A stretch of DNA of 64,000 nt from Acidobacteriota bacterium. Its GTDB lineage: Bacteria; Acidobacteriota; Polarisedimenticolia; Gp22-AA2. Each line of letters starts with the position of its first letter. The stretch's first letter is position 1. Shown here piece after piece: positions 27,872 to 57,186 of this stretch. A model generated the notes under the pieces. The model saw nothing but the letters and a program-made list of their open reading frames with translations. It did no database searches and was not told the DNA's origin. The DNA lies in the NCBI GenBank assembly GCA_041486695.1, contig JBGPLZ010000001.1:60913-124912 (forward strand). Reading direction: 5' to 3'. A program made the position numbers and the translations under genes.

Positions 27872-27945
27872 TGGTTGGGGCGGGAGGATTCGAACCTCCG
27901 ATCCCGGATCCAAAGTCCGGTGTCTTACCGCTTGACGACGCCCCA
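27872..27945 (-). tRNA. tRNA-Gln (anticodon UUG)
   Basis: Manually folded cloverleaf: acceptor TGGGGCG/CGCCCCA, anticodon stem CCGGA/TCCGG with loop CTTTGGA (anticodon TTG), T-arm GGAGG-TTCGAAT-CCTCC, encoded CCA. Confidence 0.8.
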
Positions 27946-29196: not shown

Positions 29197-30071
29197 CTCT
29201 CCCGATCCGCGGTCGAGCCGAGGAGGCCCGCCGCGGTCAGGGAGGCGAGAAGCGGCCGCTTCTCGAATCCTTCAGGGACCGGAGGTGCGAAAACTGCGGG
29301 CGCCGTAGCGGACAGAACCGGCCCCTCGATCGCCGTCAGCTCTACCCGGGCATTCTCGCGCGCCAGCCTGAGGCGAATCCGCCGCGGCCAGCGCGGTCCC
29401 GAGCCGGTCTCGTGATCCTCGTACTCAACCTGAAGCATCATAGCACCGGTGATGCCATCCCGCACCGAGGCCTCGGTGAGAATCCCGCCGCGATCCTGGC
29501 AGCGGGCCCGATAGCGGATCTCGTTAGGCGGGCATGTGACCTCGTACCAGGCAACCGTGCGTCCGAACGTCGCGGCCAGTTTCGTCTGCACCTGCTGCTG
29601 CACCGATTCGGGCGAGCACATCGGGCGGCCGGTCAGGAGAGCCACGACCTGTGCGGGGTTGAGGGGCAGTCCGAGCAGCCGGTCGAGCGTCTCGGAGCTG
29701 GCCGGAGCGGCCTCGTAGCTTTTGTCTCCGGGCACCAGGGCCAGGGCGTCGGCCCCGTCCACCGCGACGATCAAGCGCGCGCCGCCCACCGGACCGAAGA
29801 ATTCGAGGCGGAGCCGGTCGGGCGGACGAAGAGCTGCGGCCATCTTGAAGTGCGACTTGCCCCTCGGACCGTCCGTCTCCACCCGGAACAGGGCCCGGTA
29901 GGCCGGCAGGACATCCGGGCTGGGCTGCAGCTCCGCAACTCTGGAAGTCGTGACGCATGCCGTGCCCGCCAGGAGGGACAGCAGGACGGACAGCGCGAGC
30001 GCCCGCGGGCGTGATAGCGCCGCCGTGGACGCATCGAGGCTCCGCTTGCCGATCTTACGACGGCGGCTCAT
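29193..30071 (-). CDS. LolB-like / DUF4292 outer-membrane lipoprotein
   Basis: Signal peptide with lipobox-like LLAGTAC. Conserved tpr-lolB-ispE-prs neighbourhood. ATGA overlaps on both sides. Confidence 0.55.
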   Translation of the reverse strand: MSRRRKIGKRSLDASTAALSRPRALALSVLLSLLAGTACVTTSRVAELQPSPDVLPAYRALFRVETDGPRGKSHFKMAAALRPPDRLRLEFFGPVGGARLIVAVDGADALALVPGDKSYEAAPASSETLDRLLGLPLNPAQVVALLTGRPMCSPESVQQQVQTKLAATFGRTVAWYEVTCPPNEIRYRARCQDRGGILTEASVRDGITGAMMLQVEYEDHETGSGPRWPRRIRLRLARENARVELTAIEGPVLSATAPAVFAPPVPEGFEKRPLLASLTAAGLLGSTADRER

Positions 30072-32032
30072 CGGGGAGCTTCGGCCGCAACCCGCGCCCG
30101 CTGGAGTTTGTCCCGTACCCGCCCGGGCTCTTCGTGGTCATGGTGGAGGGCCGATTCCCACTGCCGTACGGCCTCTTCGAGTCGTCCGGTGGCCATCAGC
30201 AGGTCTCCGAGGTGCTCCAGGATGGCCGGGTCGGCCTGGTCGTAACGCAGAGCATCCCGCAGGTTCTTCTCGGCCTGCTCGTAGAGCGCCAGCTTGAACT
30301 GCGCCCACCCGAGACTGTCGAGATAGGCGGGATTCTTCGGGTCGAGAGCTAGGGCGCGCTGCACGTAGGTGATCGACTCCTTCAGCTTTAGGCCGCGATC
30401 GGCCAGCATGTATCCGAGATAGTTGAGCGCCATCGCATTGTTAGGATTGAGACGGATCGCCTTGGCCAACAGCCGCTCCGCCTGCCCGCTCTCCCCCATT
30501 CGCTCCATCGCCGCCCCTCGTGCGAACACCAGGCCGTCATCCGCGGGGTGGCGCTGGGTCCCCTCCTTGAGCACCGCATCCGCTTCGGCAAACTGCTTCT
30601 GCCGCAACCACGCTTCCGATATCCGCGAATAGGCCTCCGGGCTGCGGTCCTTCTCCTGAAGCACCCGTCCGAAGAGGGTGCGCGCGCCCTCGAGGTCGGC
30701 CCGGACGATGAGGATCTCTCCCTGCGCGACCTGGATGTCGAGATCGCCCGGGAATCGGCGGAAGGCTTCCGTCAGAGTCTTCTGGGCTTCCTCGGGCTTC
30801 GCCGCCTCGAGATTCGCTCGAGCGAGGAGGAGAAACAGCTCCGGGCCGGGCTCATCTGCCGCCTCCAGGGCCTTCATGAACGACGCGGCCGCCGCCTCCC
30901 AGTCACGCGCATCCATCTTGATGAGGCCGATCTGGGAGTGAGTCAGCGTCAGGACCGCCGACTCACGGTCGGACAGCGCCCCCCGGCCGGCCGACAGATC
31001 GAGGAGCGCGTTGAATCCTGCGAGCGCCGCTTCTGAATTCCCTTCCTTCTCCTGCAGCCGGGCCTTGTGGAAGCGCGCTTCGAGGTATCCCGGCTGGCGT
31101 TCTATCAATCGATCGTAGCGCGTCATCGCCGCATCGGCATCCCCCGCGGCCTCGTAGGCCTGGGCCAGCGCCAGGAGGGCCGCTGAATCGACGGGATCGA
31201 GCCTCTGGGCCTCCTCCAGCGAGGCGATCGCCTCCTTGAAGCGCCCGGCGCGCAGCTGCAATGAGCCGAGCCGGCTTTGGACCGCCGCCGTCGGAGAGAC
31301 GCCGCGGAGCAGGCCCTCATAGACACCGATCGCCTGATCGGGCTTTTTCTCGTACTCGTAGAGCGCCGCCAGGCTGTCGGCCACTTCGAGGCTCGAAGGA
31401 GATCGCTCGGCCGCGCGCCGGAGATTGCGCTCCGCTTCGTCGAGATTTCCCCGGCGCGCCTCCACCTTGCCCAGAAGGAGAGAAAGGGTAGCGTCCAGTG
31501 ACTCCGACCGTGCAAAGGCATGCAGCTGGGTCGCCGCCTCGTCGAGCCGTCCCGTCTGAAACAGAATCTCGGCCAGGGGCTGGACGGCATCGCGGTCGGA
31601 AGGGTTGGCCTCCAGGGTGGCCCGGTACTGCTCGATGGCGCGCTCCACGTTGGCGTCGGTGTCCCGCCCCTCGCGGGCGCGGCTCAAGGCGATGTCCGCC
31701 AGAAGCCGGTGCGCCTCAGATACCCGAGGATGCGCCGTGGCGACTTGCTGCGCCAGGGAAGCGGCGCGGTCGAGATCATTCAAGGTGAAGCGCAGCTGGG
31801 CCAGCTCGAGCAGCAGATCGGGGTCGGTATCGCGCGCCGCCGCGCGCTCCAGGAAATCGATGGCCGAGGAGAAATCCCGCTCGAGGAGCGACTGCTGCGA
31901 GAGCGAGTAGAGCTGGTAGGCCTGCGCCTGACGCGAGATGTCGCCGGGGTCCGTTGCCGCCGCGGTGCCCGCGAGTGTGGAGCCGGCTGCCAGAAGCACC
32001 GCCATCACCAGACAGAATCCTGTGCGTGTCAT
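30068..32032 (-). CDS. tetratricopeptide-repeat protein, secreted
   Basis: Signal peptide followed by more than 12 TPR units throughout. 654 aa. Confidence 0.7.
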   Translation of the reverse strand: MTRTGFCLVMAVLLAAGSTLAGTAAATDPGDISRQAQAYQLYSLSQQSLLERDFSSAIDFLERAAARDTDPDLLLELAQLRFTLNDLDRAASLAQQVATAHPRVSEAHRLLADIALSRAREGRDTDANVERAIEQYRATLEANPSDRDAVQPLAEILFQTGRLDEAATQLHAFARSESLDATLSLLLGKVEARRGNLDEAERNLRRAAERSPSSLEVADSLAALYEYEKKPDQAIGVYEGLLRGVSPTAAVQSRLGSLQLRAGRFKEAIASLEEAQRLDPVDSAALLALAQAYEAAGDADAAMTRYDRLIERQPGYLEARFHKARLQEKEGNSEAALAGFNALLDLSAGRGALSDRESAVLTLTHSQIGLIKMDARDWEAAAASFMKALEAADEPGPELFLLLARANLEAAKPEEAQKTLTEAFRRFPGDLDIQVAQGEILIVRADLEGARTLFGRVLQEKDRSPEAYSRISEAWLRQKQFAEADAVLKEGTQRHPADDGLVFARGAAMERMGESGQAERLLAKAIRLNPNNAMALNYLGYMLADRGLKLKESITYVQRALALDPKNPAYLDSLGWAQFKLALYEQAEKNLRDALRYDQADPAILEHLGDLLMATGRLEEAVRQWESALHHDHEEPGRVRDKLQRARVAAEAPR

Positions 32033-33516
32033 CGCGTCTTCACCGTTTCGGGCTCATCGAACTTCATCTTGAGGCGACGTGAGAGTCCACCGAGACTCAT
32101 GCCCAGCTGTCGCGTCTGCTTGGAGTGAAAGTCGGCGTCGACCCCCTGGATGTCGTCATAGGAGCGGTCGGCGCTCGTCACCCGGGCCTCGATCCTCCGG
32201 TGCCCCGGGGACACCTGAAGGGAGCGTACCCAGAGACTCTTGGAACCGCCGCGAATCGGCTCGTCGAGCACCTTGTTGCCATCGATCCGGACGACGACAT
32301 GACCGCCGCTGAAGCGATGGCTCAGGGTCAGCTTCAGGCGCGCCATCGAGGCCGGATCCGAGCTCATGGCGGTCTCTTCCGGCGGCGCGCCGCTGCCGCG
32401 GTCCCATGGCGCCGCGGTGACTGCCGCGAGCGGACGATCTCCGGCCGAAACCGCCGGGGCTCGCCGGAGCAGGTACGGAGCGGAGGCCAGCATCCCCAGG
32501 CAGAGCAGGAAGACGACCCATCCCAGGCCGAGAGGCGAGCCGGCACGGATCAGGACCGCGGCCCAGCGAGGAGCCAGGAAAGTGATGCCCCGCACCCCCC
32601 CCTCCCGCGAGGACGGGGCGGTCTCCGCGGCGGCGCGGCCGGAGACCAGCGTCGCCGGAACCGAGCGATCGGCGGACCCCTTCCACTCGGCCACCGCGCT
32701 CCGTAGATCCTCCGCGAGATCGGCGCAGCGCGTGTAGCGGCCCGAGGCTCCCTTGGCGAGAACCTTCCGCATGACTCGATCGAACGCCGGCACGAGCGAA
32801 GGATTCAGTTTGGTGACCGGCGGGGGATCGACGTTGACGACCTGGTAGGAGATCGCGGTCACGCTCTCGCCCATGAATGGCTTCTCCCCCGTCAGGAGCT
32901 GATACAGGATCACGCCGAGGGAGAACTGGTCGGTGCGGCCATCGACATCCAGACCGGTCACCTGCTCGGGGGCCATGTAGTTGGGCGTTCCGAAGAAGCG
33001 TCCCGGTCGTGTCAGCCCGCCTGCGGCGAGGCGGGCGATGCCGAAGTCGAGGATCTTGGCCTGGCTGTTCTCTGTCAGGATGATGTTGGCGGGCTTGACG
33101 TCCCGATGGACGACGCCGTTCTCGTGGGCGTAGTCGAGCGCGCCGGCGAGCTGGGCGACCACGTCCGCCACCTGGGTCAGTGGGAGACGCCCTCCGCCCG
33201 CCAGGAGATCATGCAGATTGGTGCCGGTCACGAACTCCATGGCGATGTAGGCGTCGCCGTCGCCGCTCTTCTCGCCGACGTCGTAGATGGTCACGATGTT
33301 CGGGTGATTCAGCCGACCCGCGATCTGCGCCTCGTGATAGAAGCGCTGCAGGAACTCCTCTTCCTCCCCCGGACCAAGGGGGAAGGCGAAGGCGATCGTC
33401 TTCAGGGCGACGACCCTGCCGATGCGCGGGTCGCGGGCCTTGTAAACGGCCCCCATCGCCCCGCGCCCGACCTCCTCAAGAATCTCGTAGCGCCCGATCG
33501 TCTTGGGCTTGTCCAT
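32029..33516 (-). CDS. Hanks-type Ser/Thr protein kinase, one TM helix and a C-terminal extracytoplasmic domain
   Basis: Kinase subdomains GRGAMGAVYKA, VALK, HRDVKPANIIL, DFGIA, GTPNYMAPE. TM segment WAAVLIRAGSPLGLGWVVFLLCLGMLA. About 150-aa C-terminal domain without PASTA repeats. ATGA overlaps on both sides. Confidence 0.8.
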   Translation of the reverse strand: MDKPKTIGRYEILEEVGRGAMGAVYKARDPRIGRVVALKTIAFAFPLGPGEEEEFLQRFYHEAQIAGRLNHPNIVTIYDVGEKSGDGDAYIAMEFVTGTNLHDLLAGGGRLPLTQVADVVAQLAGALDYAHENGVVHRDVKPANIILTENSQAKILDFGIARLAAGGLTRPGRFFGTPNYMAPEQVTGLDVDGRTDQFSLGVILYQLLTGEKPFMGESVTAISYQVVNVDPPPVTKLNPSLVPAFDRVMRKVLAKGASGRYTRCADLAEDLRSAVAEWKGSADRSVPATLVSGRAAAETAPSSREGGVRGITFLAPRWAAVLIRAGSPLGLGWVVFLLCLGMLASAPYLLRRAPAVSAGDRPLAAVTAAPWDRGSGAPPEETAMSSDPASMARLKLTLSHRFSGGHVVVRIDGNKVLDEPIRGGSKSLWVRSLQVSPGHRRIEARVTSADRSYDDIQGVDADFHSKQTRQLGMSLGGLSRRLKMKFDEPETVKTR

Positions 33517-34448
33517 CAGTGCGATCCCCTGCGGTCGAGGCCGGCGAGAGTGGAGGCGGGAACGACCTTGATCTCCGCCGACCGGAGCAGGTCCGCACAA
33601 CCTCTCAGCGCCGCCGCCGTGACGCGATCGGCATGCCCGATCCCCACGGCCGCCCCCTGTTCGCGCGCCCTCCTGAGAAGCTCGCGGACCTGGCCTTCAA
33701 TATAGGACTCCTCTCGCCTGTCGTCCAGGAACACGCTGCGCTCCAGCGCGGGAATCCCCATGTCACGCGCCATGTCGTAGGCGACCGTCTCGCTGGTCGT
33801 CCGGCTGTCGAGGAAGTAGAGCCCGCGCTCGCGAACCACCTCCAGAACCGCCCGCATCGCCACCGGGTCGGCGGTCACCCGCGACCCCATGTGGTTATTC
33901 ACCCCCACCGCCTCGGGAACCTCGTCGAGCGCCCGGCGTACCGTCGCGGTGATCTCGGCCGGCCGCATCTTCTCCGAGATCGCTCCTTGCCCGGGATTAC
34001 GAGCGGGAAAGGCCAGCGGCTCCATCGGCAGATGCAGGATCACTTCCCGGCCCGAGGCTCGCAGCCGTGAGGCCAGGCTTCGAGTGTGGCTCTGGAACGG
34101 CAGGACCGCGAAGGTCAGCGGCAGACCGAGGCTCGCCATGTCGAGCGCCGGCCCCTCTTCGAAGCCGACATCGTCGATGACGATCGCGACACGGGGCGTC
34201 TCCTCTCCGGCCGGCACCCAGTCGTCTTCCGGCGAGGTCTCCGGTGAGCGAGGGCGAGGCCGCGGGGAGGGCAGGGCCGGCTCCTTGCGGGATCCTTCAT
34301 GCCCGCGACCATGAGCGGACACGGTTCGGGCACGGTCGGCCTGAGGGCGATCCAGGTACTCGAGGAGCCCGATGCAGAGGGTCACGAGGAGGGCCAGCGC
34401 GACGATCGGCCAGAGCCCGCTCTGCCGGGATCCCCCGGCACGGCTCAC
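33516..34448 (-). CDS. YibQ-family divergent polysaccharide deacetylase
   Basis: Motif VAIVIDDVG...LPLTFAVLP of the YibQ/DUF610 family. Start placed at GTG 34448, forming a GTGA overlap with the ctpA stop. The ORF's upstream ATG (34577) would overlap ctpA by 130 nt. Confidence 0.7.
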   Translation of the reverse strand: MSRAGGSRQSGLWPIVALALLVTLCIGLLEYLDRPQADRARTVSAHGRGHEGSRKEPALPSPRPRPRSPETSPEDDWVPAGEETPRVAIVIDDVGFEEGPALDMASLGLPLTFAVLPFQSHTRSLASRLRASGREVILHLPMEPLAFPARNPGQGAISEKMRPAEITATVRRALDEVPEAVGVNNHMGSRVTADPVAMRAVLEVVRERGLYFLDSRTTSETVAYDMARDMGIPALERSVFLDDRREESYIEGQVRELLRRAREQGAAVGIGHADRVTAAALRGCADLLRSAEIKVVPASTLAGLDRRGSH

Positions 34449-47690: not shown

Positions 47691-48416
47691 TCAGGGCCTC
47701 GTCGGCGCGGCGGCGGCCGCAGCGGCCGCGTCCATGGTGCCGACATAGCGTGCGATGAGCGACTCGTCCTCCGGCTGCATCTCGACGAACCGCACCCCCA
47801 CGCCGGCGATCAGATGGGAGTCGGGGTCGCTCTGCACTTGCCGCACCACGACGGCGCGCGCGCGGATGGCGCAATGGCGTGCCTGGATTGGCAGACGCAG
47901 CGACAGCGTCACCGCAGTCTCGATCGGAAGCAACTCCGGAAGGGAGAGAAAGAGACCGGTCCGGCTGATGTCCTTGACCCGGCAACGCCGGCGGGCGCCG
48001 CCCGGCTCCGGCGCGATCTGCGCCGTGAGCCGTGCGCATCGGCGCGGCCCCCGTCGGTGCCAGACGCCTCCGAGCGATCCGAGGACCATCTCTAGAGCCT
48101 CCGGAGCCAGCGGCCTGGCGAGGGTGGCATCCGCGCCAGCCTCGAAGCAGGAGCCGAGACACGCCGGGGCACCGACCACCACCACGGGAGTGGCGCGCAG
48201 GGACGGGTCGCCCTTGAGCGAGCGCAGGCAGGCTGGCGCGTCGATACCTGAATGGTCCGTGTCAATCACGATGAGATCGGGGCGACCGCGACGTGCCTTG
48301 TCGAGCAGCTCCCGCCATCCGGAGGCACGCACGATATCGCACCCGAGTCGCCGGAGAAACGATGCTTCCAGCAGCCGGAAGAGACCGGCGTCGTCAACCA
48401 TGAGGACCCGGGGCAT
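47691..48416 (-). CDS. REC-PilZ response regulator (candidate c-di-GMP effector)
   Basis: Receiver domain (VLMVDDAG...LIVIDTD) followed by PilZ motifs RRRCRVKDISRTGLFL. Start at internal Met 48416. The upstream ORF part to 48671 is junk overlapping the NtrC-like gene. Confidence 0.7.
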   Translation of the reverse strand: MPRVLMVDDAGLFRLLEASFLRRLGCDIVRASGWRELLDKARRGRPDLIVIDTDHSGIDAPACLRSLKGDPSLRATPVVVVGAPACLGSCFEAGADATLARPLAPEALEMVLGSLGGVWHRRGPRRCARLTAQIAPEPGGARRRCRVKDISRTGLFLSLPELLPIETAVTLSLRLPIQARHCAIRARAVVVRQVQSDPDSHLIAGVGVRFVEMQPEDESLIARYVGTMDAAAAAAAAPTRP

Positions 48417-48552
48417 TTTCTGGCTCGTTCGGGGCCCGCCTCGCGGGGCGATCGATCTGCGGGAAGTCTGCTCTCTCAGAAGCGCCGCAGCGCGGTGCCG
48501 ATGCGTTCGAGATCGTAGCATAGCCGGCTCCGGCCATGCAAGGTTGGCAGGA

Positions 48553-48569
48553 CCCTCGACCCCGTCGAG
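48553..48569 (-). terminator. GC-rich hairpin downstream of the NtrC-like gene
   Basis: Minus strand CCTCGAC-GGG-GTCGAGG, perfect 7-bp stem, about 30 nt after the stop. No U-tract. Confidence 0.25.
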
Positions 48570-48597
48570 GCGAGGGCCGCACCTCCCTTGCCGGTGC

Positions 48598-50070
48598 TCA
48601 GTTGCGCGACGACCCGCCGCCGGCGGCTGCCTCGCCCGCGAGCGCCGGACCAGCGACCTCGGCCGCCGCAAGGGACCCGCGCTCGGCGGCCCCTTTGAGC
48701 GGGATGCCGAGCCGTTTCATCTTTTCGATGAGGGTGGTGCGCTTGATCTTCAGGAGCTCCGCAGCGCGGGTCTTGACCCATCCAGAATGCTCCAGGGCCT
48801 GATAGAGCATCCGCTGTTCGTAGCTGGCCAGCACCTCGTCCAGCGAAAATCCGTCCCCTCCAACCTGGAGGATCGGCATCTCCACCAGACCCTCGTCCAG
48901 CACCTCCCTGGGCAGATCCTCCCGTCCGAGCAGCGACTTCCCGAACGACAGCGCCACGGCGCGCTCGATGACGTTCTCCAGTTGCCGAACGTTCCCCGGC
49001 CAGGAATATTCGACCAGGGTCTTGAGGGCTTCCGGGGTGAATTGCTTGAGGGGCACGCCCATCTCCCGGCAATAGATGCCCAGGAAGTGCTGGAGCAGGA
49101 GGGGGATGTCCTGTCGCCGCTGACGCAGGGTTGGCAGCTCGAAATGGATCACGTTCAAGCGGTAGTAGAGATCCTCCCGGAAGCGACCCTCCTCCATCAT
49201 TTTCTTGAGATCGACGTTGGTGGCGGCGATGACCCGGACGTCCACGGAGACCTTGGTGGTGCTGCCAAGAGGCACGAACTCGCGCTCCTGCAGGACCCGC
49301 AGCAGCTTGATCTGCAGGCCCATGCTCATGCTGCCGATCTCGTCAAAGAAAAGCGTTCCGGTGTCCGCGGCCACGAACCGACCGGAACGATCGGCGACCG
49401 CATCGGTGAATGCGCCCTTCGCGTGCCCGAAGAGCTCGTCCTCGAGAAGCGAGTCCGGAATTCCTCCGCAGCTGACCGAGACGAAGGGCTGACCGCGGCG
49501 ATCGCCATTGAAGTGAAGCGCCTTGCTGACCAGTTCCTTGCCGGTGCCGCTGGCGCCGGTGATCAACACCGTGCTGCGCGTCGACGCAACCTGTTCGATG
49601 AGCCCGAAAATCCGCCGCATCTCAGCGCTCTGGCCGATGATGTTGTGGACGCCATAGGTACCCTCGAGTTGGCGCTTGAGGTAGACGTTCTCGCGCCGCA
49701 GTCGGCTGCGCTCCAGGGCGCGCGCGACGACCAGCTCGACCTCCTCCATCCTGAAGGGCTTGACGACGTAATCGACCGCTCCCATTTTCATCGCCTTGAT
49801 GGCCGTCTCGACCGATGCGTAGCCGGTGATCATGACGACCGGCGTCTCGGCGCGCAGCGCCGTGAGCTCTTTGAGGATTTCCAAGCCGTCGACGCGCGGG
49901 AGAACCATGTCCAGGATGACCAGGTCGACCGGTCCCTCTCGCAGAGCGGCGACCGCCTTCTCCCCGGACTCCACGCTCGTGACTTTGTAGCCACTCTCTT
50001 TGAGGGCCTGGCCGAGCACCTGCCGAACTCCTTCGTCATCATCGACCACCAGGATCGTTTCGTCTTTCAC
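48598..50070 (-). CDS. sigma-54-dependent response regulator (NtrC family: REC-AAA+-HTH)
   Basis: Receiver domain. AAA+ Walker A GASGTGKE, GAFTGA-type loop (HAKGAFTDA), ESWPGNVRQLEN. C-terminal Fis-type HTH. Start set at the second GTG (50070; SD GGAGAGG 4 nt upstream, giving MKDETILVVDDD). The ORF track starts 15 nt earlier at 50085. Confidence 0.85.
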   Translation of the reverse strand: MKDETILVVDDDEGVRQVLGQALKESGYKVTSVESGEKAVAALREGPVDLVILDMVLPRVDGLEILKELTALRAETPVVMITGYASVETAIKAMKMGAVDYVVKPFRMEEVELVVARALERSRLRRENVYLKRQLEGTYGVHNIIGQSAEMRRIFGLIEQVASTRSTVLITGASGTGKELVSKALHFNGDRRGQPFVSVSCGGIPDSLLEDELFGHAKGAFTDAVADRSGRFVAADTGTLFFDEIGSMSMGLQIKLLRVLQEREFVPLGSTTKVSVDVRVIAATNVDLKKMMEEGRFREDLYYRLNVIHFELPTLRQRRQDIPLLLQHFLGIYCREMGVPLKQFTPEALKTLVEYSWPGNVRQLENVIERAVALSFGKSLLGREDLPREVLDEGLVEMPILQVGGDGFSLDEVLASYEQRMLYQALEHSGWVKTRAAELLKIKRTTLIEKMKRLGIPLKGAAERGSLAAAEVAGPALAGEAAAGGGSSRN

Positions 50071-50121
50071 GGGGCCTCTCCTCACTCGTGAGCGCCGACC
50101 GGGATCGCTCGTGGAATCTCT

Positions 50122-50141
50122 ATGAGCAATCGCTGTGCCAG
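50122..50141 (-). promoter_or_regulatory. sigma-54 (-24/-12) promoter upstream of the NtrC-like gene
   Basis: Minus strand CTGGCACAGCGATTGCTCAT matches TGGCAC-N5-TTGCW exactly, with GG/GC spaced 12 nt. About 40 nt upstream of the gene start. Confidence 0.55.
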
Positions 50142-50212
50142 CCGGGTGACAGACTCAGAAGGTCAGGTCAGGGCTTGCCTGAGGCCGTTCAGAGGATCGC
50201 GAGGAGCAAGAG

Positions 50213-50250
50213 CGTCAGAAAGGTGACGTAAATCGTCAACGGTAAGGAAA
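50213..50250 (-). promoter_or_regulatory. candidate enhancer/UAS: TTGACG direct repeats (22-nt spacing), one inside an inverted repeat TGACG-N5-CGTCA
   Basis: 80-120 bp upstream of the sigma-54 promoter, the right distance for an EBP binding site. Motifs are short, so chance occurrence is possible. Confidence 0.25.
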
Positions 50251-50315
50251 AAAAGCGTCAACGAGCCGACTGGGGTTCCATCGGGGGAGAGGTGTGAGGT
50301 GACGCGACGGTCCTG

Positions 50316-50753
50316 TCAGTGCGACAGGCCGCCTCGACCCGGGGCAGGCACGCCGAGAACGCGCGCCCGGCCGCTGACGATTGATCCGGGTTGCACTTGA
50401 AGAACCGGAGTCGCGATCTCGCCTTCGAAGAGGCCCGTGGGTGAGACCAGCACTCGCGTCGCCGCCCTGATCGAGCCTCGCGCCTCGCCGGCGAGATCGA
50501 CGCTTTGGACCTCGACCTCGGCCGCGACACGTCCGTTGCTGGCGATCGTCAGCTTGCCGCGCAGCACGATCACCCCGTCGACCTCGCCATGGATTACGAC
50601 CGGTCCTTCTCCCCGGATGGCGCCGCGAATACGGGTCCGGGGGCCGATCACGGTTCGACCTCCGCCCTGCGGCGTCATATCCTCCCGATGCCGATCGGTG
50701 ACCATCGGCTGCGCCGGCGCGGCGGAATCCTCGTTGCGCTTCTTGAAGAGCAT
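50316..50753 (-). CDS. bactofilin (polymer-forming cytoskeletal protein)
   Basis: Beta-helical bactofilin repeats (VIGPRTRIRGAIRGEGPVVIHGEVDGVI...ASNGRVAAEVEVQSVDLAGEARGSIRA...). 145 aa. Confidence 0.8.
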   Translation of the reverse strand: MLFKKRNEDSAAPAQPMVTDRHREDMTPQGGGRTVIGPRTRIRGAIRGEGPVVIHGEVDGVIVLRGKLTIASNGRVAAEVEVQSVDLAGEARGSIRAATRVLVSPTGLFEGEIATPVLQVQPGSIVSGRARVLGVPAPGRGGLSH

Positions 50754-50798
50754 TGCGGCGCTCGCTCCGCGGCGGAAAGAGATCCCGCAGAAGAAGGG

Positions 50799-50874
50799 CT
50801 GGAGCGGGCAGCGGGGTTCGAACCCGCGACACCGAGCTTGGGAAGCTCGTACTCTACCAGCTGAGCTATGCCCG
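50799..50874 (-). tRNA. tRNA-Gly (anticodon CCC)
   Basis: Folded by hand: acceptor GCGGGCA/TGCCCGC, D-arm GCTC...GAGT, anticodon stem CGAGC/GCTCG with loop TTCCCAA, T-arm GCGGG-TTCGAAC-CCCGC, encoded CCA. 76 nt. Confidence 0.8.
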
Positions 50875-50915
50875 CGTCCTACATTCCGGAATGTAGCACC
50901 GCGCTCCGCGCCCTG

Positions 50916-51998
50916 TCAAACGGAGGTCGCGGCGATGATCCCGCCTCCGAGAACCTCGTCACCATCGTAGAGGACCACGGCCTGGCCAGGTGCGATGGCG
51001 CGCTGCGGAGCCTGAAACTCGACCTCGATACCGCGTTCCGGCAGCGGCGTGATCCGCGCCTCGGCCCCGGCGTGGGAAGAACGGATGCGCGCCAGCGCCG
51101 TGAAGGGCGCATGCGGCTCCGGGATGGAGACCCAGTTCACGTCGGACGCCCGAAGACGGGTGCCGTACTGCTCCCCCTCTTCCCCGACAATGACCCGGTT
51201 GCCCCCGGCGTCCAGGGCCACGACGTAGAGCCTCCGCCCGTCGTTCAGGTTGAGTCCCTTCCTCTGTCCCACCGTGAAGCCTGTTATACCCGTGTGGTGC
51301 CCGAGGACGACCCCCCGCGTGTCGATGATCTCCCCGGGGGCCCCGGTATCTCCCGTCTCGCGGCGGATCACGTCGGTGTAGCGGCCCTCCGGAACGAAGC
51401 AAATGTCCTGGCTTTCGGGCTTCGCGGCGTTTGGAAGCGTATGCGCGGCGGCCAGCCCGCGCACCTCGTCTTTGGACATCTCGCCCACGGGGAAGAGCAC
51501 GCGCTCCAGCTGCTCCTGGGTCAGGTTGAAGAGGAAGTACGACTGATCCTTGCCATGATCACGCGCCCGCAGGAGCGTCCGCCGGCCGGTGGCCGGATCT
51601 CGTCCCGTCCGGGCATAATGGCCGGTGGCGAGACGGTCCGCGCCCAGTGCGGCCGCGCGTCCGAGCAGGTGGCGGAACTTCGGGCCGGCGTTGCAGTCGA
51701 TGCACGGGACGGGTGTCCGACCGGCACGGTACTCGGTCACGAATCGGTCGATCACATCGCGCCGGAACTCATCCTCCAGATTCAGGACGTAGAAAGGGAT
51801 CCCGATCCGATCGGCGGCGGCGCGAGCATCCAGAAGGTCGCGCGGCGAACAGCACCGTCCGTACGTCGAGCGGCCGTCCCGGCCCCGATCGTAGAGCTGC
51901 ATCGACAGCCCGACTACCGACGCCCCCTGCTGTTTCAGGAGGAGCGCCGCGACCGAGGAATCGACGCCCCCGCTCATCGCCGCCCCGATGCGGCTCAT
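50916..51998 (-). CDS. mnmA: tRNA-specific 2-thiouridylase
   Basis: PP-loop SGGVDSS and MnmA catalytic Cys motifs (PCIDCN, QDICFV). Start at internal Met 51998, ATGA-coupled to the upstream FHA gene. Confidence 0.85.
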   Translation of the reverse strand: MSRIGAAMSGGVDSSVAALLLKQQGASVVGLSMQLYDRGRDGRSTYGRCCSPRDLLDARAAADRIGIPFYVLNLEDEFRRDVIDRFVTEYRAGRTPVPCIDCNAGPKFRHLLGRAAALGADRLATGHYARTGRDPATGRRTLLRARDHGKDQSYFLFNLTQEQLERVLFPVGEMSKDEVRGLAAAHTLPNAAKPESQDICFVPEGRYTDVIRRETGDTGAPGEIIDTRGVVLGHHTGITGFTVGQRKGLNLNDGRRLYVVALDAGGNRVIVGEEGEQYGTRLRASDVNWVSIPEPHAPFTALARIRSSHAGAEARITPLPERGIEVEFQAPQRAIAPGQAVVLYDGDEVLGGGIIAATSV

Positions 51999-52537
51999 GC
52001 CATTTCCTCCAGGTCGGGCTCGGAGACCGGAGCCAGGATGAGCATCAGCACCGTGCCGCCGATCCGGAACTCGGCGCGATTGTCGAGCTCGACCTGCGCG
52101 ATCTTCTGATCGTTGATGAAGGTGCCGTTGGTGCTGCCCAGGTCCTTGAGCACGACCTTCGCGCCATGCACCTCGATGGAGGCGTGCTGGCGTGAGATCT
52201 CGGAATCGTTCAGGACAACATCGCACTCGGACCGGCCGAGCACCACCAGCGGCTTGTCGATTGGCACGATCCGGCCGCTATCCTTCCCCTGCAGGACGGC
52301 GAGCGAAACCCGGTGGGCGGGGGGCAGTGTCAGATCGCCCCCCGGCACCCTGGCACGGGTGGGGATCTGGTTGGCGTCGGCATCGATGCGCGTCGTCTGC
52401 TCGCCGGGTTCGAGAGGCGCGGTCACCGAGATCGAGGTGCCGCACCCGGGACAGCGGAGCGTGGCCTCGGCCCGGCCTCGCAGCCTGGCGGGATCGAACC
52501 GGTAACGCTTGCCGCACCCGCCGCAGGCGACGATCAT
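51995..52537 (-). CDS. zinc-ribbon + FHA domain protein
   Basis: N-terminal CGGCGKRY...CPGCG zinc ribbon. C-terminal FHA signature (GRSECDVVLNDSEISRQHASIEV...LKDLGSTNGTFIND). ATGA overlaps with both neighbours. Confidence 0.7.
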   Translation of the reverse strand: MIVACGGCGKRYRFDPARLRGRAEATLRCPGCGTSISVTAPLEPGEQTTRIDADANQIPTRARVPGGDLTLPPAHRVSLAVLQGKDSGRIVPIDKPLVVLGRSECDVVLNDSEISRQHASIEVHGAKVVLKDLGSTNGTFINDQKIAQVELDNRAEFRIGGTVLMLILAPVSEPDLEEMA

Positions 52538-53709
52538 CGTACGCCCTGCAGCGCTCCGGCCGGCGCCGCCGCCCTCATCGCCGACACCACGCTCTGGAGA
52601 CGGATCACCAGTTCCTCGATCTCCTCGCGGCGCGTCTCCGGGCCGAGACTGATCCGGATCGAGGATCCCGCCTCATCGTGGAGGCCCATCGCCGCCAGCG
52701 CCTCCGATCGACGGATGGTGCCCGCCGAGCAGGCCGACCCCGCCGAGACCGCGATTCCTTCCAGATCGAGGGCAATCACGAGCGCTTCCCCCGTCGTGCC
52801 TAGGACGGCCACGCTGCTGAGCCCGGGGATTCGCGGGGTCCCCGCGCCGTTGATGCGCGCGCCAGGAATCCGCGCCTGGATTTGAATCTCGAGCAGGTCC
52901 CTGCATCGCTCGATCCTTTTTCCCTCCTCCGCGAGTCCCCGCGCGACCGCCCCGGCCGCCGCGCCGAATCCGGCGATCGCCGCCACGTTCTCCGTCCCCG
53001 GCCTGCGATTCAACTCCTGGCCGCCGCCGCGCAGGTGGGGGTGGAGCCGCACGCCGTGCCGCACGTAGAGGGCCCCCGTCCCCTGTGGCCCTCCGAACTT
53101 GTGGGCGGCGATGGAGAGGAGGTCGATCCCGAGGGCGCGGACGTCCACCGGGAGTTTCCCGACCGCCTGGGCGGCGTCGGTGTGGACAAGGATGCCTCGC
53201 CCGCGCAGGCCGGCGGCGACCTCTCCCACTGGCTGTAGAGTGCCGACCTCGTTGTTCGCCAGCATGAGGGACACGAGACAGGTTTCGGGAAGGGCGGCCT
53301 CCAGAACGGCTCGGGAACGCACCACGCCGTCACGACCCGGAGCCACCCGCACGACGTCGAAACCGCGCGACGCCAGGTCGTCCATCACGGCCAGCACGGA
53401 AGGGTGCTCGAACCCGGAGGTGACCACGCGCCGCGATGCCGGTGCGGCCGACCACGCCGCGCCGAACAGCGCCAGGTTGTTCGCTTCGCTGCCACCGATC
53501 GTCAGCACGATTTCATCGGGAGCGGCGCCGATCAGCCGGGCCACCTGCTCGCGGGCCTGCTCGACGACCATTCGGGCGCGATGACCGGGCGCGTGGACGC
53601 TGCTCGGGTTCGCCGCCGGCTCCTGCAGCTGGCGCAGCATCGCCTCCAGGGCCTCGGGTCGTAACGCGCTGGTGGCGCTATGATCGAGATAAATCCGGCG
53701 CATTTTCAA
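52534..53709 (-). CDS. cysteine desulfurase (NifS/IscS class V aminotransferase)
   Basis: PLP-lysine region SIAAHKFGGPQG and active-site Cys loop SAGSACSAG. Start is TTG 53709 or ATG 53703. Confidence 0.85.
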   Translation of the reverse strand: MKMRRIYLDHSATSALRPEALEAMLRQLQEPAANPSSVHAPGHRARMVVEQAREQVARLIGAAPDEIVLTIGGSEANNLALFGAAWSAAPASRRVVTSGFEHPSVLAVMDDLASRGFDVVRVAPGRDGVVRSRAVLEAALPETCLVSLMLANNEVGTLQPVGEVAAGLRGRGILVHTDAAQAVGKLPVDVRALGIDLLSIAAHKFGGPQGTGALYVRHGVRLHPHLRGGGQELNRRPGTENVAAIAGFGAAAGAVARGLAEEGKRIERCRDLLEIQIQARIPGARINGAGTPRIPGLSSVAVLGTTGEALVIALDLEGIAVSAGSACSAGTIRRSEALAAMGLHDEAGSSIRISLGPETRREEIEELVIRLQSVVSAMRAAAPAGALQGVR

Positions 53710-53732
53710 AACCTAGCACAGGAGCGTCATCC

Positions 53733-53762
53733 TTGACAACATTCCGACCCGGATGCTAGATT
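53733..53762 (+). promoter_or_regulatory. candidate sigma-70 promoter for the ileS operon
   Basis: TTGACA (53733-53738), 18 nt spacer, TAGATT (53757-53762), about 60 nt upstream of the ileS ATG. Confidence 0.4.
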
Positions 53763-53824
53763 CCGGGCTTCCCCGGCGTGGCCAAATCGTTGGCCGTCAA
53801 CGTGATCGAAGGATCCGGACCCGC

Positions 53825-56671
53825 ATGGAGACGCCCGACCTCAAGTCCACTCTCAACCTTCCGCGGACCGACTTCCCAATGAAGGCGGACCTGCCGCGGC
53901 GCGAGCCGCGACTGCTCGAAGCGTGGGAGGCGATCGACATCCACGCGACGATTCGGAAGGCGCGCCGGGGTCGGCCGATTTTCATGATGCACGATGGCCC
54001 TCCCTACGCCAACGGGCATATTCACCTTGGCCAGGCGCTGAACAAGATCCTGAAAGATATCGTGGTGAAGTCGCGCACCATGATGGGTTTCGATGCTCCG
54101 TACATTCCCGGCTGGGACTGTCATGGTCTGCCGATCGAGCATCAGGTGGACAAGGACCTGGGGCCGAAGAAGTTCGCCATGTCGCCCCTCCAAGTGCGGT
54201 CGGCCTGCCGCGCCTACGCCGAAAAGTTCATCGCCATCCAGCGCGACGAGTTCCGTCGTCTCGGTGTCTTCGGAGAATGGAACACCCCTTACCTGACCCT
54301 CGACACCGCCTACGAGGCAACCATCGTCGAAGAGATCGGACGGTTCGCGGCGAACGGACATGTCTACCGGGACAAACGATCGGTCCTCTGGTGTCCGCAG
54401 TGCGCAACCGCCCTGGCCGAAGCGGAGGTCGAGTATGAGGACCACAGCTCCCCCGCAATCACCGTCCGCTTCCCCCTCGACCCGGCCCGCGTCGAAAAGC
54501 TCGGGGTCGGAGGTCTAAGGGGTCGGCCGGTCTCGATCCTGATCTGGACCACGACGCCCTGGACCTTGCCGGCCAACGTCGCCGTGGCCCTCCATCCCGA
54601 GTTCGATTACCAGATCGTCGACCTGGGCGCCGAGGTGGTCGTGCTCGCAGCCGACCGCGCCGAGGCCATCCTGGGCGAGCGCACCCGGGAGTCTCGAACG
54701 GTCCTGGCAACCTTCAAGGGGCGCGAACTCCTGTCCCTGGTCGAGGCGAAGGCGCCCTATCCGTTCGCGGCCGGCGGCGCCTCGCGCCTGGTTCCTGCCG
54801 ACTACGTGACGCGCGACACCGGGACCGGAGCCGTGCACACAGCTCCGGGCCACGGCATGGATGACTTCCAGACCGGACGGCGCCACGGTCTGGCGATCTT
54901 TTCGCCCGTCGACGAGCGCGGTCGCTTCCAGGCGGAGGTGACCCAGTTCGCCGGGATGAAGGTCTTCGACGCCAACGTTCCGATCATGGAGGATCTGAAG
55001 GCGCGCGGCCTGCTGTGGAACGCCAGCACGATCACCCATAGCTATCCCCACTGCTGGCGGTGCAAACAGCCGATCATTTTCCGCGCCACGGAGCAGTGGT
55101 GGATCGCCCTCGATCATAACGAGCTGCGACGCCGCTGCCTGGAGTCGATCCAGAGGGTGCGCTGGATTCCACCCGCCGGCTCCCAGCGGATCGGGGGCAT
55201 GATCGCGACCCGCCCCGACTGGTGCATCTCGCGGCAGCGCGTCTGGGGTGTCCCCCTTCCTTTCCCGTTCTGTGTCCGGTGCGGCCGCGAGATCGTCGAC
55301 CCGGGCTTCATCGCCAGGACCGCCGCCCTGTTCCGCGAGCGCGGCAGCGACGCCTGGTTCGAGCCCGAATCGTTCGCGCGCCTCGCAGAGGGCACCTCCT
55401 GCCCGAACTGTGGCGGTGGTGAGCTTCAGGCCCGTCATGAGATCGTGGACGTCTGGTTCGAGTCGGGGGTTTCCTATCTGGCGCTGATCGCGGCACGCGC
55501 GGAGCTCCGCTGGCCGAGCGATCTTTACCTCGAGGGGAGCGATCAGCACCGCGGCTGGTTTCATTCCTCCCTCCTGGTGGCGGTCGACAGCCGTAACGAG
55601 GCGCCCTACCGAAGCGTCCTGACCCATGGCTTCACTCTCGACGGCTCCGGCCGCAAGATGTCGAAGTCGCTGGGGAACGTCATCGCGCCCCAGGAGGTGA
55701 TCACCCAGCATGGCGGGGATGTCCTGCGGCTTTGGGTCGCCACGGTCGACTTCCTCGAGGACATGCGGCTGTCGCAGGAAATCCTGGCGCGCAACGCCGA
55801 GGCCTATCGCAAGATCCGCAACACCTGTCGCTTCATCCTCGGGAACCTGCGCGACTTCGATCCGAGCCGGAACGCGGTGCCTCTCGACCGCCTCGAGGAG
55901 ATCGACCGCTGGGCTCTCCACCAGCTGAACGATCTGGTCGGCCGGGTGCGCGCCGCCTACGATGCCTACGAGTTTCATGTGGCCTCGCAGGCGCTGCACC
56001 GCTTCAGCACCGTGACGCTGAGCGCCTTTTACCTGGATGTCCTCAAGGACCGTCTCTACACGAGCGCGCCCGACGCGGCGCCTCGACGATCGGCCCAGAC
56101 GGCGATGCGTCTGATCCTTGAAGCCTTGACCCGGCTGATGGCGCCGATCCTCTGCTTCACGGCAGAAGAGATCTGGCAGGCGCTGCGCGGCCGCCGCGAT
56201 GGCGATCCGATCCTCGCCACCGTCCATGCGGAAGAGTTCCCGACACCGTTCGATCTCCCCCCGGACACAGACCTGCTCGCCCGGTTCGAGCGCCTGCTCG
56301 AGATCCGGGACGATGTCCTCAAGGCCATCGAGACCGTGCGCGCCCAGGGTCTCCTCGGAAATGCCCTCGAGGCTCGGGTGACTGTCGACGCGCCGGCCGA
56401 GGTGCGGCCTCTCCTGGAGCGCCATGCCGGCGATCTCCCGTTTCTCTTGATCGTCTCCGGCGTGGTCCTCGGACCGGTCGCTTCGCCGGTCCACGTGAGC
56501 GCGCGGATCCCGGGGCTGAGGATCGGCGTCGACCGGCAGCCGGGAACCAAGTGTGAGCGCTGCTGGAACGTGCGCCAGGACATCGGTGCCGACCCCACCC
56601 TGCCGTCGGTCTGCGGGCGCTGCGCGGGGGCGGTGCGGTCGATCCTGGCGACCCGGGGAAGAAACGCATGA
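53825..56671 (+). CDS. ileS: isoleucine--tRNA ligase
   Basis: HIGH ([11 protein letters not shown]), KMSKS, CP1 editing domain, C-terminal Zn finger CERCW...CGRC. Start at Met 53825. Confidence 0.9.
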
Positions 56672-57186
56672 ACCGTGAGACGGCGTGGCGAGCCTCGTAC
56701 GCCCTGGTCTCCGTCAGCGTCCTCGTCCTCGATCAGATCACCAAGTGGCAGATCACCTCGAACATGGCGCTCTACTCATCCATCCCCGTGGTGCGCGGCC
56801 TCTTCCACCTGACCCTGGTCACGAACCGCGGAGCGCTGTTCGGCCTCTTCCATGACATGGCCGACCCCTACCGGAGCGCGTTGTTCACCTCCATCCCCAT
56901 TCTGGCGATCGTGCTGATCGTCGTTTTTCAGGTGCGCACGACCGTTGCCGACACCGTGGCCCAAGCCGGCCTGGCCCTGATCCTTGGCGGTGCTGTCGGG
57001 AACCTCACCGATCGTCTGCGGCTCGGCTACGTCATCGATTTCCTCGACATCTTCGTCGGCGACCACCATTGGCCGGCCTTCAACGTGGCCGATGCGTCGA
57101 TCTGCATCGGCGTGACCTTCCTGGTCCTCGATCTCCTCGCCAAGGGACCGGAGCACCGGCGCGCCGGATCGACACCGGAGCCCTGA
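56668..57186 (+). CDS. lspA: lipoprotein signal peptidase II
   Basis: LspA motifs ([13 protein letters not shown]). ATGA overlap with ileS. Confidence 0.85.

Follow-up and report, generated by a model that had tools for sequence, protein, structure and literature searches.

What is a small protein with a zinc (Zn) ribbon and an FHA domain doing between a cysteine desulfurase and the tRNA thiolase MnmA? The question is raised by a 64-kb stretch of DNA from an Acidobacteriota bacterium (contig JBGPLZ010000001.1), referred to here as the window, with all coordinates counted from its first letter. On its minus strand lies a tricistron in the order cysteine desulfurase, Zn-ribbon-FHA protein, mnmA. 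An earlier note on this DNA had called the middle gene a Zn-ribbon and FHA protein coupled by ATGA overlaps on both sides, and had suggested that the sulfur relay for 2-thiolation of U34 in tRNA (s2U34) is gated by Ser/Thr phosphorylation. The gene calls are borne out by Pfam profiles, sequence motifs and the NCBIfam model for MnmA, and both overlaps can be read in the sequence (52537-52534 and 51998-51995). The note had also named an insertion that is unique and unconserved as the outcome that would speak against its idea; instead, the nifS-FHA-mnmA arrangement recurs in several Acidobacteriota classes, with the trio kept in Polarisedimenticolia and Thermoanaerobaculia and partial forms elsewhere. 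Judging from gene context only, we favour, at a probability of roughly 0.4, the reading that the NifS-MnmA sulfur relay has, in the Zn-ribbon-FHA protein, a regulatory subunit under kinase control. The features on which the argument turns are as follows.

52534..53703 (-), nifS-like class I (NifS/IscS/YrvO-like) cysteine desulfurase, first gene (PF00266 and motifs)
52534..52537 (-), ATGA overlap of the nifS stop and the FHA start (direct sequence reading)
51995..52537 (-), Zn-ribbon and FHA protein of 180 aa, middle gene (Pfam, homologues, AF2 model)
52430..52537 (-), four-cysteine zinc ribbon, residues 1-36, with C5, C8, C29 and C32 in two CxxC pairs (PF13717)
52364..52408 (-), linker motif PGEQ-T48-TRIDADANQI, candidate phospho-acceptor and FHA ligand, T-x-x-I/L (alignment)
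52394-52396 (-), T48 codon (sequence)
52028..52315 (-), FHA domain, residues 75-170 (alignment, AF2, Foldseek)
52006..52010 (-), GGAGG Shine-Dalgarno sequence for mnmA, within the FHA gene and 7 nt ahead of the mnmA ATG
51995..51998 (-), ATGA overlap of the FHA stop and the mnmA start (direct sequence reading)
50916..51998 (-), MnmA, tRNA 2-thiouridine(34) synthase, third gene (Pfam, NCBIfam, PDB match)

The middle open reading frame (ORF) is not a chance occurrence, since 485 homologues are present in the protein index and their conservation follows the domains. Its FHA domain is recognized by PF00498 over residues 98-160 (3e-20; 72.8 bits against a gathering cut-off of 20.7) and, over residues 81-166, by the Yop-YscD_cpl profile (1e-20), whilst residues 1-36 score 32.9 bits with Zn_ribbon_4 (PF13717, MJ0042-type; cut-off 30.3). 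In an alignment of 121 homologues, from which all of the conservation counts given here are taken, the four cysteines C5, C8, C29 and C32 are invariant in 111/111 of the proteins that possess the N-terminus, and the linker between zinc ribbon and FHA domain varies in length. The phosphothreonine pocket is composed of G101-R102, S115-R116-x-H118 and S135-T136-N137-G138, all invariant save for G101 and G138, which are each retained in 120/121. The canonical phosphothreonine-binding residues, R102 of the beta3-4 loop, S115-x-x-H118 of beta4-5 and N137 of beta6-7, are all present, and the protein looks functional, with a predicted phosphothreonine pocket. An AlphaFold2 (AF2) model built from a 103-sequence alignment has a mean predicted local distance difference test score (pLDDT) of 85.5, exceeding 90 over residues 75-170 and falling in the linker to 62 for residues 41-50 and ~80 for residues 51-70. 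The modelled beta-sandwich matches many FHA structures with a Foldseek probability of 1.00. Its closest solved relatives, both by sequence (E ~2e-11) and by fold (Foldseek E ~2e-9), are GarA and OdhI, with target-normalised TM-scores of ~0.9 to OdhI 4qcj and GarA 6i2q, followed by FhaA, CT664, the FHA domain of DgcB and ArnA.

The family is medium-sized, small Zn-ribbon-FHA proteins accounting for 33 of the best 150 clusters at 50% identity, as compared with 52,210 FHA proteins overall. Those homologues whose source is named are mostly from Acidobacteriota, including Candidatus Polarisedimenticolia, with one from Candidatus Cryosericum sp., and the related genome loci belong to Acidobacteriota classes. 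Several database entries (P0086 and similar clusters; 5899-6435 in L002/L003) are only 144 aa long and lack the zinc ribbon. These entries are mis-called starts, as tblastn reveals a full protein of 178 aa that begins at a non-ATG codon ~100 nt upstream.

The two outer genes encode a plausible donor and acceptor of sulfur. The first ORF, a class-V aminotransferase (PF00266, E 5e-70), is listed as 52534..53709 and opens with a TTG at 53709, the ATG at 53703 being the likelier start. Its translation carries the pyridoxal-phosphate (PLP) lysine motif AAHKF and the catalytic-Cys motif SAGSAC, which identify the product of 52534..53703 as a class I cysteine desulfurase. The best NCBIfam match is NifS TIGR03402, at 381 bits under a cut-off of 531, and IscS TIGR02006 scores 280 bits under 643; the enzyme would thus lie outside the named class I equivalogs, as expected of a dedicated YrvO-like desulfurase. 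The product of the third gene matches each of the three Pfam domains of MnmA and exceeds the cut-off of the NCBIfam equivalog NF001138 (422 bits against 284), with a PP-loop SGGVDSS, a CxxC-type PCIDCN motif and a second catalytic cysteine in DICFV. Its closest PDB match is 9hln (4e-76; aligned motif PCVMCN), of which 9hlv is a deposited C-to-D variant. The CxxC active-site variant is common to the window and all linked loci, whereas MnmA of E. coli has DxxC. CxxC-type MnmA may depend on an iron-sulfur cluster and, if so, would be tied more closely to a cysteine desulfurase.

The nearest described counterpart of the enzyme pair is that of Bacillus subtilis, in which an IscS-like desulfurase likewise lies upstream of mnmA in the same operon. 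There YrvO, a dedicated desulfurase whose gene immediately precedes mnmA, suffices together with MnmA for s2U34 formation (PMC5372745). The window differs in the 543-nt FHA gene that is wedged between the two and overlaps both, none being described for Bacillus; its MnmA shares the CxxC type with 9hln. By analogy, the operon would constitute an abbreviated, Tus-independent route to s2U34, the desulfurase passing sulfur straight to MnmA as YrvO does, and the overlapping stop and start codons would cause the FHA protein to be produced in step with both enzymes.

How widely is the trio retained? The locus counts that follow describe a sample, not a census, namely the best-listed matches in scans of genome collections, together with close Polarisedimenticolia genomes that the genome scan missed and the protein index supplied. 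Every Polarisedimenticolia-type locus examined has the tight trio with the same overlaps. The identities of their FHA proteins to that of the window are 69% (L001), 63% (L002/L003), 56% (L007), 50% (L093) and 42% (P0098), and the loci are fully syntenic, with rluD-lgt-lspA-ileS diverging from nifS-FHA-mnmA-bactofilin-ntrC-pilZ-RR-EAL (RR, response regulator). In the Thermoanaerobaculia loci L009 and L088 the trio is equally tight in identical gene order and the flanks are unrelated (a VWA/Big_7/GWxTD protein and a TAtT-like protein). The 4-nt overlap of nifS and FHA recurs in L001, L007, L009 and L169, the last of which has all three genes with frameshifts. Partial forms are also found: FHA-mnmA pairs within other flanks occur in L010 (Holophagae, with DnaB upstream) and L017, both lacking nifS, and in L168, and nifS is at most two genes upstream of FHA in L004, L008, L011, L092, L095, L096, L098, L169 and L170. 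In a rough neighbour-joining tree, the nifS/mnmA-linked proteins extend through most of one large clade. The matches to mnmA in L017 (6674-7747) and to nifS and mnmA in L169 (4375-8019) fall in several frames, reflecting either assembly frameshifts or decaying genes.

If the FHA protein does act on the relay, how might it do so? A candidate switch is present in the linker, where a conserved island, P-G-[DE]-x-T48-T-R-[LI]-x-x-D-A, lies ~27 residues ahead of the first FHA strand. Of the 121 homologues, 107 retain T48, 104 R50, 109 L/I51 and 111 D54, and the linker on either side varies in length. Vicinamibacteria-type proteins have T-I-T-G-[KR]-D-L, and more distant members possess acidic-Thr-Thr motifs (DETTKQF in L010, DETTSQ in P0146 and NETTFT in P0156; also RETTARK and QDTTARV). 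Because of its distance to the FHA domain and its T-x-x-[LI] pattern, T48 resembles the ETTS tail of GarA and OdhI, and this suggests a self-binding phospho-switch of the GarA type.

GarA of Mycobacterium and OdhI of Corynebacterium, which control enzymes of the tricarboxylic acid (TCA) cycle and of glutamate metabolism, bind those enzymes directly and without phosphate; once the ETTS tail is phosphorylated, the FHA domain binds its own tail and the enzymes are released (PMC12321487, PMC9769921). A related principle is found in DgcB, the FHA domain of which reads the phosphorylated tail of its own protein (PMC6733907). The window protein is similar to GarA and OdhI in being a small single-FHA protein, in the sequence and fold of its FHA domain, for which they are the best match (30% identity), in having a conserved Thr motif ~30 residues upstream of the FHA core, and in the logic proposed here, a direct binding of enzymes that is relieved by phosphorylation of the protein's own tail. 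However, GarA and OdhI lack the N-terminal zinc ribbon, and their ETTS is analogous rather than identical to the G-[DE]-x-T-T-R-L of the window family (EQTTRI in the window). Their targets, ODH, GDH and GOGAT, also differ from the candidates here, a desulfurase and a tRNA thiolase, and no genes for such targets are adjacent in the window. Moreover, GarA and OdhI are proteins of Actinobacteria, to which GarA has been described as unique (PMC12321487), whereas the window family is mostly acidobacterial. The FHA domain of DgcB from Bdellovibrio is likewise similar (6hc1, E 2.6e-9), as is the concept of reading one's own tail, but DgcB fuses its FHA domain to a GGDEF enzyme whilst the FHA protein of the window is separate from its candidate enzymes.

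Transferred to the operon, this scheme would have the FHA protein bind NifS and/or MnmA and so place the sulfur relay under the control of a Hanks-type Ser/Thr kinase. The unphosphorylated protein would hold an enzyme through its phosphothreonine pocket, or through the zinc ribbon, with no phosphate needed; a kinase would then phosphorylate T48 in the linker; and the FHA domain would close on its own tail and release the enzyme. The effect of binding could be either inhibitory or activating. That such a GarA-like switch couples a Hanks-type kinase to U34 thiolation of tRNA-Glu, tRNA-Gln and tRNA-Lys, by way of the desulfurase and/or MnmA, we regard as a tentative and somewhat doubtful proposal, and our confidence in the self-binding mode is lower than in a functional link as such. 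Every element of the mechanism has precedent; what is new is the candidate target, here of an FHA protein with a bacterial zinc-ribbon architecture.

The support for a link to kinase signalling is indirect and lies in the Hanks kinases that adjoin basal, distant members of the family. Such kinases are directly adjacent to the FHA gene in L016, L018, L021, L102 and L103, of which L021, L103 and L018 are basal in the same neighbour-joining tree. In the window, the Hanks-type kinase that the earlier note had placed at 32029 is present (PF00069, 1e-51), encoded by the ORF 32029..33600 (-) of 523 aa; it is the sole kinase of the window and the 51995 gene the sole FHA gene. An assignment of this kinase as the partner, by its similarity to the kinases beside distant family members, was considered and set aside, as a similarity of 35-45% may reflect phylogeny alone. 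The window kinase contains a transmembrane segment, and its C-terminal region is extracytoplasmic. Its gene shares 4 nt with that of a 654-aa TPR protein (30068-32032, -) that matches PknG_TPR marginally (27.4 bits against 27); PknG, the kinase of OdhI and GarA, has its TPR domain fused. In L019 a TPR protein is encoded 3' of the Zn-ribbon-FHA gene, and in L016 the corresponding position is occupied by a kinase that aligns with residues 29-496 of the window kinase.

The proposal that the FHA protein regulates the relay has to be weighed, above all, against the view that it is a hitch-hiker: a general adaptor of Hanks-kinase pathways with targets elsewhere, for example in the cell envelope or in other housekeeping, that takes no part in the sulfur relay. 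Such a gene would have come to lie between those of the two enzymes in an ancestor of several acidobacterial classes and been retained because an overlap-coupled middle gene is hard to remove. We consider this a serious possibility, if short of probable, and a number of observations speak for it or against a regulatory role. At least ten other family loci place the FHA gene in unrelated surroundings, several of them with 4-nt overlaps: pnp-cdd-FHA-ddl-rsmG, overlapped on both sides (L012/L013), DUF192-FHA-unknown-purD (L014/L015), LolA-FHA-TPR (L019), a gene diverging from LarE/LarB-like genes with an ABC transporter next to it (L089), and FHA-kinase and kinase-FHA pairs. As unrelated operons show overlaps too, overlap coupling is a habit of this FHA gene rather than proof of a partnership. 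The trio itself erodes stepwise in Vicinamibacteria-like contigs, which form a third synteny block bounded by ECH/ACAD genes and rnc. In L168 the order is nifS(+)-lipA(-)-FHA(+)-mnmA(+), with a 22-nt gap ahead of mnmA; in L095, L011 and L100 it is nifS-lipA(-)-FHA-PLP decarboxylase-ppa(-)-mnmA; and in L004, L170 and L096 it is nifS-Peptidase_MA_2-FHA with no mnmA within 6-8 kb, mnmA being lost in L004/L170. Broken by lipA and ppa on the opposite strand, the trio is no longer one transcript in these genomes, where the FHA gene is instead co-directional with a PLP-dependent group II decarboxylase directly 3' of it. An alignment of MnmA from the linked loci contains no lineage-specific insert, obvious docking motif or conserved docking threonine, and no other co-adapted feature is detectable in it; likewise, no FHA-NifS or FHA-MnmA fusion occurs among 270 retrieved proteins. 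The kinase of the window is 18 kb from the FHA gene and has no genetic linkage to it. Nor does the protein reach the cut-offs of the family models: the OdhI equivalog NF041660 aligns with the FHA part alone at 45.6 bits against 200, and FhaB/FipA NF049868, the best NCBIfam match of that part, scores 71.4 bits against 125, so that the protein belongs to neither family. FhaB/FipA (Rv0019c), of mycobacterial cell division, also has no zinc ribbon and a different gene context. As regards the linker threonine, in 33 representatives at <=50% identity [DE]T[TS] is observed 6 times against 2.3 expected (reached by 26/1000 shuffles) and T..[LIVF] 20 times against 14.1 (27/1000), an enrichment that is modest and concerns patterns picked after inspection of the data. 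Against the hitch-hiker view, the trio is intact in two classes that share no flanking genes, at least 11 loci in which the block has broken up still have the FHA gene together with NifS or MnmA, and NifS or MnmA occurs within 6 kb of generic FHA genes in 0/~130 loci (L022-L087, L104-L167).

Two further explanations grant the FHA protein a role in thiolation but by other means. The version put forward in the earlier note is that the kinase target is a threonine of NifS or MnmA and that the FHA domain reads this residue once phosphorylated, to scaffold or gate the two enzymes. It is consistent with the intact canonical pocket and with a gene placed between those for both enzymes, and it has a precedent in ArnA, the archaellum repressor of Sulfolobus acidocaldarius, which combines a zinc finger with an FHA domain and recognizes its partner in phosphorylated form (PMC6509490) within a Ser/Thr-kinase network (PMC6509490, PMC12852372). 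The layout of ArnA, an N-terminal four-Cys finger, a linker and a C-terminal FHA domain in ~200 aa, is that of the window protein, and the FHA domains are similar (5a8i, E 6e-8 over residues 41-177; Foldseek rank 17). However, the finger of ArnA is of the RanBP2 type and that of the window protein of the Zn_ribbon_4/MJ0042 type, its partner is the vWA protein ArnB whereas no vWA gene adjoins the FHA gene of the window, and ArnA is archaeal with motility gene expression as its output. Furthermore, no conserved exposed T-x-x-[ILVD] is conspicuous when MnmA from the linked loci is aligned (NifS was examined at lesser depth), the searched literature does not contain phosphorylation of MnmA or of a desulfurase by bacterial Ser/Thr kinases, and the strongly conserved threonine is situated in the FHA protein's own linker. 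We therefore hold a phosphorylated NifS or MnmA to be unlikely, and the GarA/OdhI-like model appears to fit the sequence at least as well. Alternatively, the zinc ribbon might bind tRNA or another RNA and deliver substrate to MnmA, the FHA domain being a structural or oligomerisation module. RNA binding is possible for small four-cysteine fingers of other kinds, the ArnA-type finger among them (PMC6509490), and the gene directly precedes mnmA, also in FHA-mnmA pairs without nifS (L010 and L017) or with lipA between nifS and the pair (L168). Nevertheless, the invariant phosphothreonine pocket favours phospho-signalling over a passive module, no RNA-binding role of Zn_ribbon_4 was found, and MnmA binds tRNA alone in the solved complexes 2der/2det/2deu; such a function is accordingly very improbable.

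The phosphorylation gating that the earlier note put forward is supported in part. The domain calls, the translational coupling and the conservation of the arrangement stand behind it, whilst its basis is gene context, the kinase lies at a distance, the family recurs in unrelated operons and the trio is split in the Vicinamibacteria-like genomes. The association is a conserved and undescribed one, weakened as evidence by the promiscuous genomic locations of the family. The statement that such a mechanism had not been described agrees with the literature searched, in which there is no link between an FHA domain and MnmA, no relevant one between an FHA domain and a cysteine desulfurase and nothing relevant that ties MnmA to Ser/Thr kinases, and in which FHA domain and zinc ribbon meet only in comparative-genomics surveys.

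The choice between these explanations has consequences beyond the operon. Thiolation of U34 tunes the decoding of Glu, Gln and Lys codons, and in eukaryotes the modification is known to report on how much sulfur and nutrient is at hand; to our knowledge, its regulation in bacteria is almost unexplored. If the FHA protein does control the relay as a GarA-like switch, then for the first time in bacteria a sulfur relay serving tRNA modification would answer directly to phospho-signalling. It would also be the first time that an enzyme regulator of the GarA type is met in a phylum other than Actinobacteria, and the principle would reach past central carbon and nitrogen metabolism. A conserved phosphothreonine reader in a desulfurase-MnmA operon offers three small soluble proteins with which to ask whether kinases adjust translation via tRNA modification. 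If the protein is a passenger, the operon would teach that overlap coupling within an operon is, taken by itself, poor evidence for a common function.

Some of the loci in which the FHA gene has other neighbours have features of their own. In the Vicinamibacteria-like contigs, the gene beside nifS encodes lipoyl synthase, a radical-SAM enzyme that inserts sulfur, and the one beside mnmA encodes inorganic pyrophosphatase, MnmA being an enzyme that releases pyrophosphate (L095 3259-7481; L100 457-3336; L168 4924-5799). Where the order is nifS-peptidase-FHA-rnc, the second gene 3' of FHA consistently encodes a HAMP-SpoIIE (PP2C-type) phosphatase (L004 7446-9431, -; L170 9562-11571, -), possibly the cognate one. 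The genes adjoining FHA in L012 (4794-8149) and L013, which represent an acidobacterial lineage of 47% G+C (GC), encode cytidine deaminase (cdd) and D-Ala-D-Ala ligase (ddl). In L089 (4100-5739, -), a PP-loop ATPase with weak QueC/NAD-synthase matches is paired with an AIR-carboxylase-like gene; the pair resembles LarE/LarB, of which LarE, like MnmA, is a PP-loop enzyme that transfers sulfur.

Where does the transcription unit begin and end? Two flanking features define its limits.

53704..53824 (.), divergent promoter region between nifS and ileS (promoter scan)
50800..50875 (-), tRNA-Gly(CCC), downstream limit of the tricistron (ARAGORN)

As ileS diverges upstream and the tRNA gene has its own promoter downstream, the unit comprises exactly nifS, FHA and mnmA. 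The intergenic gap between nifS and ileS is about 115 nt (the homologous gap in L001 is ~120 nt), with promoter-like sites at 53733-53762 (+) and 53709-53680 (-). The tRNA-Gly(CCC) gene is situated between mnmA and a bactofilin gene, and its promoter-like site at 50919-50890 (-), TTGACA-18-TACATT, is near the sigma-70-like consensus and overlaps the end of mnmA. This tRNA was considered as a substrate of MnmA, or as part of the system, and ruled out, as it has no U34 and has a separate promoter. It also accounts for the tRNA-like peptide of a spurious ORF at 50437-50970 (+). A tRNA-Gln(UUG), a natural type of s2U34 substrate, is encoded at 27872-27945 (-), 23 kb from the operon and with no evident link to it.

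Upstream, the listed ileS ORF (53753-56671, +) begins 24 codons early, and the conserved IleS N-terminus points to a Met at 53825 as the probable true start; ileS shares 4 nt with lspA (56668-57186, +), after which relatives have lgt and rluD. Long antisense ORFs at 47755-50091 (+), 50868-52109 (+) and 54515-56494 (-), of 778, 413 and 659 aa, lie opposite ntrC, mnmA and ileS; they are not genes but the usual artefacts of scarce stop codons in a genome of 67% GC. Downstream of the operon are the bactofilin gene and an NtrC-type sigma-54 response regulator (48598-50753, -). In L001, L002 and L007, the genes after bactofilin and ntrC encode PilZ-receiver, receiver, EAL and PAS-histidine-kinase proteins, and the whole forms a conserved cyclic di-GMP (c-di-GMP) and two-component cluster beside the thiolation operon.

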